IMG/VR virus record: IMGVR_UViG_2778261572_000015
DNA: 4,111 nt
Strand: one strand, 5' to 3'
Origin: a virus
Taxonomy: Duplodnaviria; Heunggongvirae; Uroviricota; Caudoviricetes
The position numbers and the translations under genes are program-made. Numbering within the stretch: position 1 is the stretch's first letter; each line of letters opens with the position of its first letter. Positions 1 through 4,111 of the stretch are shown in pieces. The notes below the pieces were generated by a model that did not search any database, was not told where the DNA came from, and worked only from the letters and a program-made list of their open reading frames with translations.

Positions 1-1011
1 TTATAACGTCACTCCGCCTTTTAGAGGATTCAGCGCGACGGCATTTTGCAGGTAGTCAGGCGCAAGGTGCGCATAGGCCATCGTCTGCTGAATGCTCGCA
101 TGTCCCAGAATCTGTTGCAGTGCGATTATATTGCCCCCATTCATCATGAAATGGCTTGCGAATGTATGCCGCAGGATGTGGGTTGCCTGATTGGGTGGTA
201 TATCTGGCTTCACTCTGCGTAAAATCCCGCAAAACTTCTCATAATCAACTTTGAATAATTTAGCGCTGGCCTCCTCTTTAACTTTTTTCTCCAGTTCCTC
301 AGAAATCGGCACGGTTCGCTTTTTACCGTTTTTGGTTTTCAGGAAGGTAACCCTGCAATTTGTAATCTGTGCTGGTTTTAGCGTGGCAACTTCCGTCCAT
401 CTTCCTCCAGTGCTCAGACATAAAAGTGCGACAAGTAAGTCATCACCATCCAAAACATTTAACAGTTTTTCGATTTCTGCTTTTTCCAGGAACGTCATTT
501 CAGGGTTGGCCTCCGCCAGTGGCGGCAGTCCGTGAATTGGGTGTTGCCCGGAAAATTCATCCAATTGAATTAATTTTGTGAACATGCCGGATAATCGGTA
601 CATGTCACGGTTTATCGTTGCGGCACTGATACCATCACGTAGTCGCATGGAACGATAATCCATCAAAGCTCTTTTGCTCATCCGGCTCACTGGTATATCA
701 CCTATGCCGCTGATGGTTTTGAGCAGATGATTAAACTCTTTTGTTCCATGCTCGTGGTTTTGCCCGTGATATTTCCACCAGATGTTCAGCAACTCACTCA
801 AAGTTCTGCGATCTGCTCGCTGACCTGCCCATTCTTTCTGGCTGGCGTAGGCGATTGTGTATCGCTCAAATGCTACAGCCTCAGCTTTTCTTTCAAATTT
901 CCTGCGGATGCGTTTTCCGTCGCGACCGCGAGGTCTAATGTCCACTTCATAGCGTCCATCATCGAGCTTCTTAATTGACATAAGAAAGCCCTCTGACGCT
1001 GTATTCACCAT
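1..1011 (-). CDS. int: Tyrosine-type site-specific integrase (P2 Int-like). Longest ORF is 336 aa from the ATG at 1011; an alternative in-frame ATG at 981 (MSIKKLDDG..., 326 aa) has a much better Shine-Dalgarno (GAGGG 8 nt upstream).
   Basis: Translation carries the tyrosine recombinase catalytic signature: conserved Arg in LSTGGRWTEV, then HILRHTFASHF and LGHASIQQTMAYAHL (H-x-x-R-H ... Y). Size about 330 aa and position next to a small repressor match P2-type integrases. The window starts exactly at its stop codon (TAA, complement of 1..3). Confidence 0.93.
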   Translation of the reverse strand: MVNTASEGFLMSIKKLDDGRYEVDIRPRGRDGKRIRRKFERKAEAVAFERYTIAYASQKEWAGQRADRRTLSELLNIWWKYHGQNHEHGTKEFNHLLKTISGIGDIPVSRMSKRALMDYRSMRLRDGISAATINRDMYRLSGMFTKLIQLDEFSGQHPIHGLPPLAEANPEMTFLEKAEIEKLLNVLDGDDLLVALLCLSTGGRWTEVATLKPAQITNCRVTFLKTKNGKKRTVPISEELEKKVKEEASAKLFKVDYEKFCGILRRVKPDIPPNQATHILRHTFASHFMMNGGNIIALQQILGHASIQQTMAYAHLAPDYLQNAVALNPLKGGVTL

Positions 1012-1050
1012 CTTGGTAACAAATGGTGAAAATGTAATGTTTATAGAGTG

Positions 1051-1344
1051 TTAACCAGTCTGTTTTTCGGAGTGGTCTGATTCTGTTGGTTTTTGCCCAA
1101 TGTGTGCGAGAGCCGGCGCGATCTGACCAGCTTGTGGTGACGTATCACCAGTCATTAACCAGAGCGTATATTTTTTAAATAAAGGCGTATTTGTGACTCG
1201 CATAACGATGCTGAGACCAGGGTCTTTATGCCCACTTTCGTAATTTTTGACTGTTCCTAGAGCTATCCCGCTAATTTCGCTGAATTTCGCCTGTGTTAAG
1301 CCTTCTGCTTTCCTAATCGCTTTCAGTTTTTCGAATGTCTGCAT
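1051..1344 (-). CDS. C: Phage immunity repressor, P2 C-type (97 aa, small HTH repressor)
   Basis: 97-aa ORF immediately upstream of and co-oriented with int. The N-terminal part has an HTH-like segment (LTQAKFSEISGIALGTVKNYESG). The C-terminal motif KYTLWLMTG...GQIAPALAH matches what I recall of P2-family C repressors. It faces a rightward early promoter, as expected for a switch. Confidence 0.78.
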   Translation of the reverse strand: MQTFEKLKAIRKAEGLTQAKFSEISGIALGTVKNYESGHKDPGLSIVMRVTNTPLFKKYTLWLMTGDTSPQAGQIAPALAHIGQKPTESDHSEKQTG

Positions 1345-1373
1345 TTGACAGTAACCTATTGGTGACTTATATT
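1345..1373 (+). promoter_or_regulatory. Candidate early promoter (Pe-like), sigma70 type: -35 TTGACA (1345-1350), 17-bp spacer, -10 TATATT (1368-1373)
   Basis: Read directly from the sequence: exact consensus -35 hexamer, optimal 17-bp spacer, 4/6 match at -10. It is oriented toward the cox-like operon and begins at the nucleotide after the repressor start codon, so the repressor mRNA must originate further right and read across it (face-to-face arrangement). Confidence 0.55.
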
Positions 1374-1400
1374 CCCGTTAAAAGGTTGTGTATTGGTGAC
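1357..1400. repeat. Two perfect 10-bp direct repeats TATTGGTGAC (1357-1366 and 1391-1400), candidate repressor operator half-sites flanking the -10 element
   Basis: Exact 10/10 direct repeat, centre-to-centre 34 bp. One copy lies in the promoter spacer abutting the -10 hexamer, the other 18 bp downstream of it. P2-type repressors are known to bind direct (not inverted) repeats flanking the -10 of Pe. Confidence 0.45.
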
Positions 1401-1496
1401 CTTTTGAGTGTGTTAGCCAGTCCCTAGAAAGGACAGGTGCGACCTAGAAGGGACTGGATCTAATAAGGGTAACACGAAAGCAAAAAGGGCTAATCA

Positions 1497-1769
1497 ATGG
1501 AAGTCAATGACTATGTGATTCAGTACCCGATTGATGCGGTACATACGGTTAAGTTTGCAGAGTTACTTGGTAAGCCAGAAACGGCTGTAGTCAAGATGGT
1601 AAAAGAGAATAAGTTGCCAGTTATTGAGCTTCGTGATCCAAGTAAGCCGAACGCTCGTGTCGGTGAGAAGTGGGTTTTCATTCCAGAGTTTAATCGCGCT
1701 GTACGAGAGGCGTTTTATAACCGACCAGTTGAACAGCGTGATGCATGGCTTTTGTGGATGGGGTTGTGA
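1497..1769 (+). CDS. cox: Cox-like protein (excisionase / directionality factor and repressor of the lysogenic promoter), 90 aa
   Basis: First gene of the rightward operon, divergent from the repressor. Size (90 aa) and motifs KLPVIELRDP...GEKWVFIPEFN...RP.EQRDAWLLWMGL fit my recollection of P2 Cox. Good RBS (AAGGG, 7 nt upstream of ATG 1497). Confidence 0.68.
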   Translation: MEVNDYVIQYPIDAVHTVKFAELLGKPETAVVKMVKENKLPVIELRDPSKPNARVGEKWVFIPEFNRAVREAFYNRPVEQRDAWLLWMGL

Positions 1770-1771
1770 TT

Positions 1772-1942
1772 ATGAGTGAACCGCGTTGTATTGCTCAGTT
1801 ACTGCGTAACGAAAGCCCCAGGGCGATTGACTTCACCATCACCCACGGTAAGGGGCGTAAGGGAATCATTATCCGCACCAAAAAACAGAGTCCGTTAAAA
1901 AAGGCTCTGACCTTTCTGAAAAGCCGGAGGGTATGGAAATGA
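1772..1942 (+). CDS. Small, highly basic hypothetical protein (56 aa from ATG 1772; the ORF track's longer form starts at 1745 inside cox)
   Basis: ATG at 1772 lies 2 nt after the cox stop (TGA 1767-1769), with a G-rich stretch upstream. The product has about 15 Lys/Arg and 3 acidic residues. It sits where P2 carries a small ORF between cox and B. Function unknown. Confidence 0.5.
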   Translation: MSEPRCIAQLLRNESPRAIDFTITHGKGRKGIIIRTKKQSPLKKALTFLKSRRVWK

Positions 1943-2439
1943 CAGTGATGACGCTCAATCTCGTTGAAAAACAGCCAGCAACTATGCGCCGGATAATTGG
2001 TAAGCATCTGGCCGTCCCTCGCTGGCAGGAGACATGCGATTATTATAATCAGATGATGGAACGTGAACGGCTAACGGTTTGCTTCCATGCGCAGTTAAAA
2101 CAGCGTCACGCAACGATGCGTTTTGAAGAAATGAACGACGTCGAACGTGAACGACTGGTATGTGCAATTGATGAATTGCGTGGGGCATTCTCAAAACGCC
2201 GTCAGGTTGGTGCAAGTGAGTATGCATATATTAGTTTTTTAACAGTCAGTCAGCGTCGCACTTTATTTATGCACGCACGACTGACAGAAAAAGAATTTAA
2301 CCAGCCATACTGGCGAATTAATGAAGAATCATGTTACTGGCGTGATGCTTTATTCCGTGCATTACGTGAATTATTCAGTCTGTTTGAGTATGCACCGACA
2401 ATTCTGACGTCGGTAAAACCAGAGCAATATCTGCATTAA
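1939..2439 (+). CDS. B: gpB-like early replication protein (P2 B is needed for lagging-strand synthesis / DnaB helicase recruitment), 166 aa
   Basis: Assigned by synteny and size only: P2 B is 166 aa as I recall it. The preferred start is ATG 1939 (GGAGG at 1926-1930, 8-nt spacing), which overlaps the upstream stop as ATGA (1939-1942). The ATG at 1933 offered by the ORF track has only a 2-nt spacer. Confidence 0.5.
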   Translation: MTVMTLNLVEKQPATMRRIIGKHLAVPRWQETCDYYNQMMERERLTVCFHAQLKQRHATMRFEEMNDVERERLVCAIDELRGAFSKRRQVGASEYAYISFLTVSQRRTLFMHARLTEKEFNQPYWRINEESCYWRDALFRALRELFSLFEYAPTILTSVKPEQYLH

Positions 2440-2502
2440 GTAATTAACCAGAGTTTTTAACGCACTTAATTGTGCGGGGCTTCTTTTTGCCTGGAGAAAG
2501 TC

Positions 2503-2727
2503 ATGCATACAGTTTCTGAAAATCAGTGCGGTATATACGCATTACTGCTGCAACAGGCCAGAACCGAAGCACAGGCCGACGCTGCGACGCGCTTTTCTTC
2601 TCATCTTGACGCCATGATTCGCCACATCACAAAGGCGGAGTTATCCCGCGTGGAGATAGTCGAGCTGCTCAGTCAGGAGTCGGAAAAATTTCACAATATC
2701 GGATTGTCTCGTGGGGAGGTGCTTTGA
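2503..2727 (+). CDS. Hypothetical small early protein (74 aa from ATG 2503; the ORF track's start at 2470 is a TTG)
   Basis: GGAG at 2493-2496, 6 nt upstream of ATG 2503. Its stop (TGA 2725-2727) overlaps the next start. No motif I recognise. Confidence 0.5.
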
Positions 2728-3029
2728 TGTCCTGTTCTCATTCAGTTGTATTACTGAATAACGCCTTAAAAATCGCCGTTATGGAAAATGGCGATTTGTC
2801 TCTTATTCAACTTGGTCTTGATAAAGAAAAGCGCGACATAACTGAATCTGTTATCGCGATTTATCAGAGCGAATTAAACCTCCTGTCTGATGTGATCAAT
2901 TTACTTGTGAAACGCGCTGTATTTCACAAGCAAATTTCCTCAGTGGATGAACTGACAAAATTAACGACAGAACTCGCCAGCTATTGCGCTGATGAATTTA
3001 AGAAACTGAACGACAAAAGGAACTGGTAA
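2727..3029 (+). CDS. Hypothetical protein, 100 aa, AT-rich coding sequence
   Basis: Start ATG 2727 overlaps the upstream stop (TGATG). GGGAGG at 2714-2719 gives a strong RBS. Its stop (TAA 3027-3029) overlaps the next start. Local GC is about 38-40 percent from my hand count, clearly lower than the flanking genes. Confidence 0.55.
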   Translation: MSCSHSVVLLNNALKIAVMENGDLSLIQLGLDKEKRDITESVIAIYQSELNLLSDVINLLVKRAVFHKQISSVDELTKLTTELASYCADEFKKLNDKRNW

Positions 3030-3253
3030 TGCCGGACAACGTAGATTTCATTCAGGAACAACAGGCTGAATTACTGGAGCGCCAGATTAACGCGGCAAGG
3101 GTAAAACATTGCGGTGCTTCTGCGCTGGTTTGCGAAGAGTGTGACGCGCCAATACCTGCTGCCCGTCGTGCGGCTTATCCGTCAGCCACGCGTTGTGTTT
3201 CCTGTCAGTCAGTCTTTGAAGCAAAAAACAAACATTACCGGAGAACGGCATGA
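3029..3253 (+). CDS. TraR/DksA-family C4 zinc-finger protein (74 aa)
   Basis: C-terminal CEECDAPIPAARRAAYPSATRCVSCQ...KHY carries two CxxC pairs with the PIP-x-x-RR spacing typical of TraR / lambda Orf73-type RNA polymerase secondary-channel binders. Start ATG 3029 overlaps the upstream stop (TAATG). Confidence 0.8.
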   Translation: MPDNVDFIQEQQAELLERQINAARVKHCGASALVCEECDAPIPAARRAAYPSATRCVSCQSVFEAKNKHYRRTA

Positions 3254-3525
3254 GTATTCGTATTGAAATTGGCGAACGTTATGTCGTTACCAGTGACAGC
3301 TTCCAGTTTATTCTCCACGAGAAAAAGAGAGCGGAAAGCGGTAAAAACGCCGGTCAGGAATGGCTGGCGGTGGTTGGTTATTACCCGAAATTAAGCCAGC
3401 TCGTTTCCGGCCTGATGCATCACGATATTCTGACCGGAAGCGCAAAGTCTTTTGCTGATTTAAACGCGCAGGTTGAGCAACTCAGCAAGCGTTGTTCAGA
3501 GGCTTTTGGCTCATATGGCCGTTAA
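3250..3525 (+). CDS. Hypothetical small early protein (91 aa)
   Basis: ATG 3250 overlaps the upstream stop as ATGA (3250-3253). GGAGA lies 5 nt upstream. Its stop (TAA 3523-3525) overlaps the start of the next ORF. No recognisable motif. Confidence 0.5.
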   Translation: MSIRIEIGERYVVTSDSFQFILHEKKRAESGKNAGQEWLAVVGYYPKLSQLVSGLMHHDILTGSAKSFADLNAQVEQLSKRCSEAFGSYGR

Positions 3526-4111
3526 AGCCTCCGGGCGTTTTGTCCCTCCGTCAGCATTTGCTGCAGGCACCGGTAAGGCGTTTACCGGTGCTTATGCATG
3601 GAACGCGCCACGCGAGGCTGTCGAGCGCGAAAGACCCCTTACACGTGACGAGATGCGTCAGGTGCAAGGTGTTTTATCCACGATTAACCGCCTGCCTTAC
3701 TTTTTGCGCTCGCTGTTTACTTCACGCTATGACTACATCCGGCGCAATAAAAGCCCGGTGCACGGGTTTTATTTCCTCACATCCACTTTTCAGCGTCGTT
3801 TATGGCCGCGCATTGAGCGTGTGAATCAGCGCCATGAAATGAACACCGACGCGTCGTTGCTGTTTCTGGCAGAGCGCGACCAGTATGCGCGCCTGCCGGG
3901 GATGAATGACAAGGAGCTGAAAAAGTTTGCCGCCCGAATCTCATCGCAGCTTTTCATGATGTATGAGGAACTCTGCGATGCCTGGGTGGATGCGCATGGC
4001 GAAAAAGAATCGCTGTTTACGGATGAGGCGCAGGCACATCTGTATGGTCATGTTGCTGGCGCTGCACTGAGAGATCCCCTCATAATTTCCCCAAAGCGTA
4101 ACCATGTGTGA
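3515..4111 (+). CDS. A: N-terminal portion of a gpA-like replication initiation protein; the frame closes with TGA at 4109-4111 after about 198 codons (212 in the ORF track, which starts at a TTG at 3473)
   Basis: Last gene of the coupled early operon, at the position of gene A in P2-type genomes. The ATG at 3515 (MAVKASGRFVPP...) is the likely start. P2-family A proteins are roughly 700 aa or more as I recall, so this product is either truncated or a different protein. Identity rests on synteny and recollection of the N-terminal sequence. Confidence 0.45.
   Translation: MAVKASGRFVPPSAFAAGTGKAFTGAYAWNAPREAVERERPLTRDEMRQVQGVLSTINRLPYFLRSLFTSRYDYIRRNKSPVHGFYFLTSTFQRRLWPRIERVNQRHEMNTDASLLFLAERDQYARLPGMNDKELKKFAARISSQLFMMYEELCDAWVDAHGEKESLFTDEAQAHLYGHVAGAALRDPLIISPKRNHV

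Follow-up and report, generated by a model that had tools for sequence, protein, structure and literature searches.

Low GC content of the orf80/orf81 region in a P2/Wphi-type prophage is probably an inherited trait tied mainly to Orf81 amino-acid composition

The AT-rich stretch between positions 2220 and 3030 of the window, as we will refer to the whole 4,111-nucleotide stretch of DNA analyzed here, belongs to the known Pe early operon of a P2/Wphi-type prophage, and its low GC content is probably inherited, reflecting mainly the amino-acid composition of Orf81 and not a recent import. An earlier note on this DNA had read the same drop as mosaic acquisition of a segment carrying small genes of foreign composition. 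In the explanation proposed here, the low GC would be a vertically inherited, lineage-wide trait of two coding stretches, with no recently imported segment involved.

Bases 1-4067 share 98.5-98.9% identity with Salmonella phage STYP1, Escherichia phage Wphi and other Peduovirus (P2-like) genomes by megablast, and the window is identified by these matches as the early region of a P2/Wphi-type Peduovirus prophage. Gene names were transferred from the Wphi and P2 annotations and checked against Pfam and PHROGs (Table 1); the synteny int-C-cox-orf78-B-orf80-orf81-orf82-orf83-A, with its gene-for-gene match and high DNA identity, is that of the Peduovirus early replication operon. The segment 2220-3030 begins in the 3' half of B, the helicase-loader gene, and takes in the spacer after it together with orf80 and orf81. 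Both orf80 and orf81 are already known, as they have been annotated as ORFs since the deposition of the P2 genome. Overlapping stop/start codons (TGATG, TAATG, ATGA) link the genes from orf80 through to A. Further downstream, orf82 matches PF01258 (Pfam, E 3e-11) and the TraR family TIGR02419 (NCBIfam, 78 bits versus a cut-off of 59.7), and orf83 matches PF17399 (Pfam, E 2e-13). Phage homology ends at 4067-4071 (megablast), and bases 4060-4111 are 98-100% identical to the "IS4-like element ISVsa5 family transposase" of 1163 plasmid records; since the last bases of the window are an IS10/ISVsa5 end, gene A is interrupted.

Table 1. Genes and sequence elements located in the window (positions counted from its first base).
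Feature	Position	Strand	Remark
int	1-1011	minus	
Immunity repressor C	1051-1344	minus	
cox	1497-1769		
orf78	1772-1942		
Replication gene B	1939-2439	+	3' half = 2220-2439
Putative rho-independent terminator	2461-2488	+	B-orf80 spacer
orf80	2503-2727	+	74 aa, DUF2732
orf81	2727-3029	+	100 aa, DUF5405
Hairpin within orf81	2770-2797	+	11-bp stem
orf82	3029-3253	+	TraR/DksA-type C4 zinc finger
orf83	3250-3525	+	DUF5405
Nickase gene A, 5' part	3515-4066		interrupted by IS10
IS10/ISVsa5 end	4067-4111		last 45 bases of window

The window has a mean GC content of 0.469, and the segment 2220-3030 has 0.420, versus 0.461 in the left flank (1-2219) and 0.52 in the right one. The block delimited by the earlier note nearly coincides with the lowest-GC 811-nt interval of the entire sequence (2214-3024), but it is not uniform: there is no continuous AT-rich block, and two dips, in the 3' half of B (0.386) and in orf81 (0.383), are separated by orf80, with 0.507 (GC of 2341-2759, 0.456). 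Most of the hand counts were reproduced on computation, namely 37-40% GC at 2220-2340 and 2760-2940 (0.372 and 0.381) and about 57% at the start of A (0.575 for 3515-3700); the value of about 50% given for int was too high (0.468). The 100-aa ORF at 2727..3029, singled out as the most deviant, is indeed the most GC-poor gene. The statistical side of the sliding-window analysis is less favorable. Using 2000 permutations of the window, and asking how often any interval of the same length is as low, the 811-nt block gave a P of 0.06 and orf81 one of 0.13, while P reached 0.78-0.98 in the two sub-blocks counted by hand. From this window alone the GC observation is therefore marginal, and the dips are non-significant after correction for scanning.

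These family-wise values of 0.06 to 0.98 would fit the idea that the dips are ordinary sampling noise of a 4-kb window, an explanation that is scarcely credible once relatives are considered. The orf81 dip is reproducible across lineages, hence real, because, of the genes from orf78 to A, it is always orf81 that has the lowest GC, in 105 of 105 distinct haplotypes (all loci gathered) and in distant relatives. Across 46 distinct alleles, drawn from 80 IMG/VR prophage loci together with P2 and Wphi, orf81 GC ranges only from 0.363 to 0.386. P2 orf81 (0.373) is the fifth-lowest gene of that phage, only the morons fun(Z), tin, orf30 and old (0.33-0.35) lying below it. Besides these close relatives, a profile search of genome contigs with a 5-sequence Orf81 alignment recovered prophages of Scandinavium, Pseudescherichia and Enterobacteriaceae strain LSJC7, in which Orf81 identity falls to just 52-58%, gene order is unchanged and the dip recurs (0.38-0.44 versus 0.49-0.59 in the neighbors). 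Such consistency, extending to relatives with saturated synonymous divergence, contradicts noise.

The cause of the orf81 dip was sought in its codon positions and protein sequence. In the window, GC1, GC2 and GC3 of orf81 are 0.47, 0.28 and 0.41, and Leu, Ser, Lys, Val, Asn, Ile, Glu and Asp make up 71% of Orf81. GC2 stays at 0.26-0.31 in every lineage, while GC3 is 0.51-0.54 in Scandinavium-type relatives, the level of the neighboring genes. When an expected GC was derived by combining each protein's amino-acid sequence with codon usage in the remaining early genes of P2, orf81 of the window gave 0.416 expected versus 0.387 observed (z -1.6) and P2 orf81 a z of -2.1; the same amino-acid-corrected test gave -7 to -10 for fun(Z), tin and old. 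The codon-usage check proposed in the earlier note thus speaks against foreign composition in orf81. The signature extends to other members of the family: in ENT4-like loci, which do not carry orf81, orf83 is the lowest-GC gene in 42 of 42 haplotypes (GC2 0.305), and DUF5405 genes from two further phages, the 186-like SW9 and the P22-like Sf6, show a GC of 0.44 and 0.41, respectively, with GC2 of 0.31-0.32 and ordinary GC3. P2 early genes as a group have 0.44-0.53 GC, versus 0.53-0.63 for most late structural and lysis genes. Since GC2 is low everywhere, z is small and other DUF5405 genes behave in the same way, the orf81 dip is largely a signature of the DUF5405 family on top of an AT-leaning early region. 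Some three quarters of the orf81 deficit resides at codon positions 1 and 2, as a consequence of a Leu/Ser/Lys/Val/Asn/Ile/Glu/Asp-rich composition that is common to every DUF5405 gene examined, including those of unrelated phage genomes, and the remainder corresponds to the mildly AT-leaning codon usage of the whole P2 early region. The residual codon-level AT excess (z -2.1 for P2 orf81, z -3.3 for the 3' half of B) counts against this explanation, as do the ENT4-like and 186-like operons that lack orf81 and the extra ORF of Yersinia phage vB_YpM_117 described below, and an ancient AT-rich donor is conceivable. More generally, raw GC dips of short phage genes can stem from amino-acid composition, and comparison with a protein-derived expected GC is advisable before such DNA is called foreign.

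A moron-type import, by which orf81 or the whole block would have been received from an AT-rich donor together with an anti-defence, exclusion or host-takeover function, is improbable, although several observations could be quoted in its favor. In the P2 ranking orf81 comes directly after four known morons, and its distribution is narrow: among 50,697 phage records it is restricted to Peduovirus, and only 22 clusters of relatives exist among 1.84 billion representative proteins. Furthermore, ENT4-like and 186-like operons do not carry the gene, and Orf81 is the most divergent protein of the operon, with the highest pN. Against import, the segment 2220-3030 is found full-length at 95-99% identity in 75 of the 76 matching phage records, P2 and Wphi included, and two of the features of a moron are not seen in orf81. 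By sequence it has neither its own promoter nor its own terminator (no promoter-like site occurs in 2220-3030), its start and stop codons overlap those of its neighbors, and amino-acid-corrected foreign codon composition is not seen, the deviation (z -1.6 to -2.1) being small beside that of fun(Z), tin and old. Scandinavium-type relatives combine an ordinary GC3 with a GC2 that is still low, and both the orf83 paralog and other DUF5405 genes have the same composition. In addition, the variable, defence-carrying hotspot of P2-like phages is located elsewhere, between A and Q (PMC9122126), and orf81 gave no PADLOC match.

The variation observed among Peduoviruses is ordinary homologous-recombination mosaicism. 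Three IMG/VR prophages are identical to the window over 2220-3514 yet have a different immunity region; other prophages share the immunity region of the window, but differ from it at 14-15 positions in orf81. Among close relatives, recombination blocks span about 1943 to 3514, with limits that do not coincide with the GC boundaries; the GC block as a recombination unit was discarded on the basis of these mismatch maps. For the block as a whole, mosaic acquisition is not sustained: it is present in 75 of 76 records, relatives have the same composition, recombination blocks are off the GC boundaries, orf80 is not AT-rich, and the deficit is mostly a matter of amino acids. Across the genus these are conserved genes of the same composition in all relatives, the outcome that the earlier note itself had named as refuting its reading. 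What is left of the mosaic proposal is a weak version for orf81, as an ancient optional cassette: the comparison of presence and absence among relatives did reveal its absence from ENT4-like phages and from the 186-like SW9, albeit not for the block in the matching records.

The relationship of orf81 with orf83 bears on the origin of this cassette. BLASTP detects no similarity between Orf81 and Orf83; since both match PF17399 and hhalign aligns the two families with 85% probability (E 5.8e-6), orf81 can be regarded, by profile comparison, as a remote, old diverged paralog of orf83. The latter is far more widespread, with tblastn homologues in 191 phage records that include Sf6 gene 24, N4-like phages and Bacillus phages. 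Four versions of the orf80-orf83 interval have been found: 80-81-82-83 in P2-type phages, 80-81-83 (no orf82) in seven loci, 80-83 (neither orf81 nor orf82) in 42 distinct ENT4-like haplotypes with the order B-orf80-orf83-A, and 80-82-83 (no orf81) in the 186-like phage SW9, as orf80-orf82-orf83-A. Yersinia phage vB_YpM_117 contains an additional 81-aa ORF at the orf80/orf81 junction. Judging from these gene orders, orf81 and orf82 appear to be old, independently optional cassettes; the ENT4-like and 186-like phages without orf81 argue that it is an old optional cassette and not a recent acquisition; the P2 branch alone would have taken it up, with orf80 on one side and orf82/orf83 on the other. 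A more specific proposal goes beyond inheritance: Orf81 would be a lineage-specific, fast-evolving duplicate of Orf83, inserted by the P2 branch as an optional host-takeover or counter-defence factor, and orf81 together with the TraR-like orf82 would form a small, previously unremarked variable spot in the otherwise conserved Peduoviridae replication operon. We consider this reading rather unlikely. In any case, the four gene-content versions present in Peduoviridae constitute natural deletion variants for the study of orf81 and orf82 function.

The second dip, in the 3' half of B, has a different composition. Its GC is 0.386 with GC3 0.31, versus 0.486 and 0.46 in the 5' half, and the observed GC of 0.389 compares with 0.458 expected from the protein (z -3.3). 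The deficit thus lies at synonymous sites, and it is conserved across lineages, since the 5'/3' step recurs in prophages with B proteins of 72-82% identity (all distant relatives). The step, near residue 94, falls where the PHROG matches change: the N-terminal region is matched by other families too, with the best stretches lying in residues 5-85, and the C-terminal region by P2-type families only, a pattern that fits a two-module protein. The pN/pS of the 3' half is 0.029, and its pS is not reduced (0.137 versus 0.135 in the 5' half), which argues against an overlapping DNA or RNA element.

Beyond B, a broader nucleic-acid explanation can be formulated, in which the AT-rich stretches are kept for H-NS binding or silencing in the prophage, as an internal promoter or unwinding element, or for an attenuator hairpin in orf81. 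We regard it as very improbable. It could invoke two hairpins and the fact that GC3 is low in the 3' half of B in all lineages. The first one lies at 2461..2488 (+), where CGCAC-N6-GTGCG and a U-tract are followed by the orf80 ribosome-binding site; the terminator scan places the site at 2461-2476, the homologous P2 site (26980-27007) is annotated as "putative rho-independent terminator", and hairpin and U-tract are kept in Scandinavium, Pseudescherichia and ENT4-type relatives. It would be a putative partial, weak rho-independent terminator. The second, revealed by the scan at 2770..2797 (+), is AAATCGCCGTT-N6-AATGGCGATTT, with an 11-bp stem and a T-rich tail. This orf81 hairpin is kept, with G-U wobbles, in 83 of 83 P2-type sequences (82 loci plus the window; five sequence variants), and Scandinavium-type relatives have it too, one of its pairs being compensatory; a further common allele group, however, has a stem broken at two or more positions. 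It was dropped as a conserved RNA element on account of these broken alleles, and probably just reflects the peptide motif K-I-A-V..N-G-D-L. Moreover, neither dip shows lowered synonymous divergence: pS reaches 0.124 in orf81 and 0.137 in the 3' half of B, values that rank with the highest of the operon, and thus neither is under extra DNA-level constraint. The scans gave no promoter-like site in 2220-3030 and no enrichment of terminator-like sites (7 versus 4.6 expected), Rfam gave no match in the window, and the P2 origin is annotated inside A, far downstream of 2220-3030.

Inherited composition being the preferred explanation, the question of what the two small genes do is a separate one. 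Both orf80 and orf81 are real genes under purifying selection. Orf80 matches Pfam PF10809 (DUF2732; E 4e-10, 40 bits versus a gathering cut-off of 25, profile positions 18-70 of 75) and belongs to phrog_128, labeled as function unknown; it has homologues spread across Enterobacterales, and its gene has a GC of 0.507 and a pN/pS of 0.11. Orf81 matches PF17399 (DUF5405) over profile positions 1-88 of 88 (E 4.7e-33, 113.9 bits versus a cut-off of 21.6). At either end the gene overlaps its neighbor by a single base, its start codon with the orf80 stop (TGATG) and its stop codon with the orf82 start (TAATG). Over 46 alleles, pN/pS of orf81 is 0.14, with the highest pN in the operon (pN/pS of neighboring genes, 0.035 to 0.215), and among distant relatives Orf81 is the fastest-diverging protein of the replication operon. 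A pN/pS near 1, hinted at by protein identity being lower than DNA identity, was discarded by this computed value, which together with a confidently predicted fold supports orf81 as a real gene.

The structure prediction suggested for the 74-aa and 100-aa proteins yielded confident models, but no counterpart in the PDB. The AlphaFold model of Orf80 (pLDDT 83.4; helices 3-45 and 49-72) predicts a two-helix hairpin, and a comparison with the PDB gave no fold match (Foldseek, best E 5.5) and no sequence match. That of Orf81 (pLDDT 86.6, pTM 0.73) predicts a four-strand beta-meander followed by two long helices, with no significant fold match (Foldseek, best E 0.08) or sequence match in the PDB. 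A likeness of Orf81 to integrase arm-binding domains (3ju0, 3rmp) was rejected as insignificant (TM 0.40-0.42, E 0.4-0.8). In BFVD, Orf81 matched only DUF5405 or uncharacterised phage proteins of Salmonella, Morganella and Lactobacillus phages (TM 0.55-0.63).

Searches for known activities were equally sparing. NCBIfam and PADLOC (E <= 0.1) gave no match for Orf80 or Orf81, so that, PDB searches included, nothing was found for or against the host-takeover, anti-defence or exclusion roles; no homologue with a tested function appeared in PDB, BFVD, NCBIfam or PADLOC. Literature searches on orf80-83, DUF5405 and DUF2732 turned up nothing beyond gene tables in which function is given as "unknown". 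The DUF5405 families phrog_265 and phrog_154 bear the PHROG/RefSeq label "replication initiation protein", for which no backing was found in Pfam, NCBIfam, PDB or the literature. The Orf83-type gene adjoins recombination and anti-RecBCD genes in Sf6 and adjoins A in Peduoviridae, and this neighborhood would place the DUF5405 family, by analogy, among early DNA-metabolism and host-takeover functions. As orf80 and orf81 lie downstream of the weak terminator and have overlapping stop/start codons, they may be co-made with the replication proteins, at a reduced level, soon after infection or induction. Their small size, simple folds and absence of catalytic motifs suggest small, non-enzymatic binding or adaptor proteins, made early in lytic growth, which might, alongside the TraR-like Orf82, modulate the early programme (replication, or the host DNA or transcription machinery) while being dispensable. 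This functional reading is inferred from operon position, size and fold. DUF5405 and DUF2732 are, in this sense, conserved early proteins with no assigned function, although their phage is among the most thoroughly studied temperate ones.

The comparison with named systems gives the region little value for discovery: it is the annotated orf80/orf81 region of P2-type phages, with a composition of ordinary cause. The early operons of P2 (AF063097) and Wphi (AY135739) agree with the window in gene order, gene lengths, start/stop overlaps and the terminator after B, and DNA identity over 2220-3030 is 96.9% to P2 and 97.5% to Wphi. Compared with P2, the immunity region is Wphi-type and not P2-type, and the Orf81 allele differs at 7% of residues; gene A, unlike that of either phage, is interrupted by IS10. 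The P2 morons old, tin, fun(Z) and orf30 share with orf81 a GC below the genome mean, but they differ from it in degree (GC 0.33-0.35, GC3 0.27-0.36 and z -3.5 to -10, versus z -1.6 to -2.1) and in setting, as they occupy variable hotspots with their own transcription signals, whereas orf81 sits in a translationally coupled operon and is itself conserved across the genus. The DUF5405 family (PF17399), which includes P2 Orf83 and Sf6 gene 24, has the full-length profile match and the low GC2 in common with Orf81, and the BFVD models of the family show the same predicted fold of a beta-meander plus two helices. Within it, Orf81 forms a small divergent branch, tied to Orf83 by profile methods only; Orf83-type members are far commoner (191 versus 75 phage records). 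Finally, the 186-like (Eganvirus) Salmonella phage SW9 resembles the window in carrying DUF2732, TraR-like zinc finger, DUF5405 and A nickase genes in the same order, and departs from it in having neither orf81 nor a P2-type B, and in an extra tgt-like gene before A.

Near residue 94 of gene B, GC3 falls from 0.46 to 0.31. A comparable step is found in B of all the distant relatives, and its position has on one side the N-terminal region, which other PHROG families also match, and on the other the P2-specific C-terminal region; beyond the step, the AT bias is synonymous. Among Peduovirus alleles (window 1772-4066), pS is 0.12-0.14 in orf78, B and orf81, and 0.05-0.07 in orf80, orf82, orf83 and A (5' part), synonymous diversity being thus about twofold higher in the former group. 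This patchwork suggests that adjacent genes differ in their recombination or coalescence histories.

An inverted repeat lies inside orf81, with 8 bp perfect and 11 pairs if wobbles are counted, and the peptide encoded there (K-I-A-V...N-G-D-L) resembles the translation of its own reverse complement. The repeat is present throughout the P2-type alleles; Scandinavium-type relatives retain it with a single compensatory pair, and it is disrupted in another group of orf81 alleles. Further downstream, replication gene A is truncated after about 184 codons by an IS10/ISVsa5 end, which should leave the prophage incapable of replication; in none of the best 10 of 2670 matching records (complete E. coli genomes) was an extension beyond 4067 found.

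Coordinates of the features discussed
Feature	Location	Remarks
Gene B	window 1939-2439
Inverted repeat	window 2770-2797	inside orf81
Gene A, truncated	window 3515-4066
IS10/ISVsa5 end	window 4067-4111
Extra ORF	L093 3011-3256 (Yersinia phage vB_YpM_117)	81 aa, GC 0.407; exactly at orf80/orf81 junction
Additional sequence	L087 6778-7803 (Enterobacteriaceae bacterium LSJC7 prophage)	between orf83 and A; about 1 kb
tgt-like gene	L176 3283-4113 (186-like phage SW9)	orf83/A junction

Across the Peduoviridae (window 2727-3525 together with loci L092, L094-L173 and L176), four gene-content versions occur between orf80 and orf83: both genes alone, with orf82, with orf81, or with orf81 and orf82. Therefore, orf81 and the TraR-like orf82 are optional independently of each other. 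In the Yersinia phage, the N-terminus of Orf81 is swapped alongside the extra ORF. The orf83/A junction may be a further insertion spot; additional sequence is observed there in the LSJC7 prophage, and a tgt-like gene in SW9. The version lacking both optional genes is that of ENT4-like loci, the one with orf82 only that of SW9, and the complete one is P2-type.
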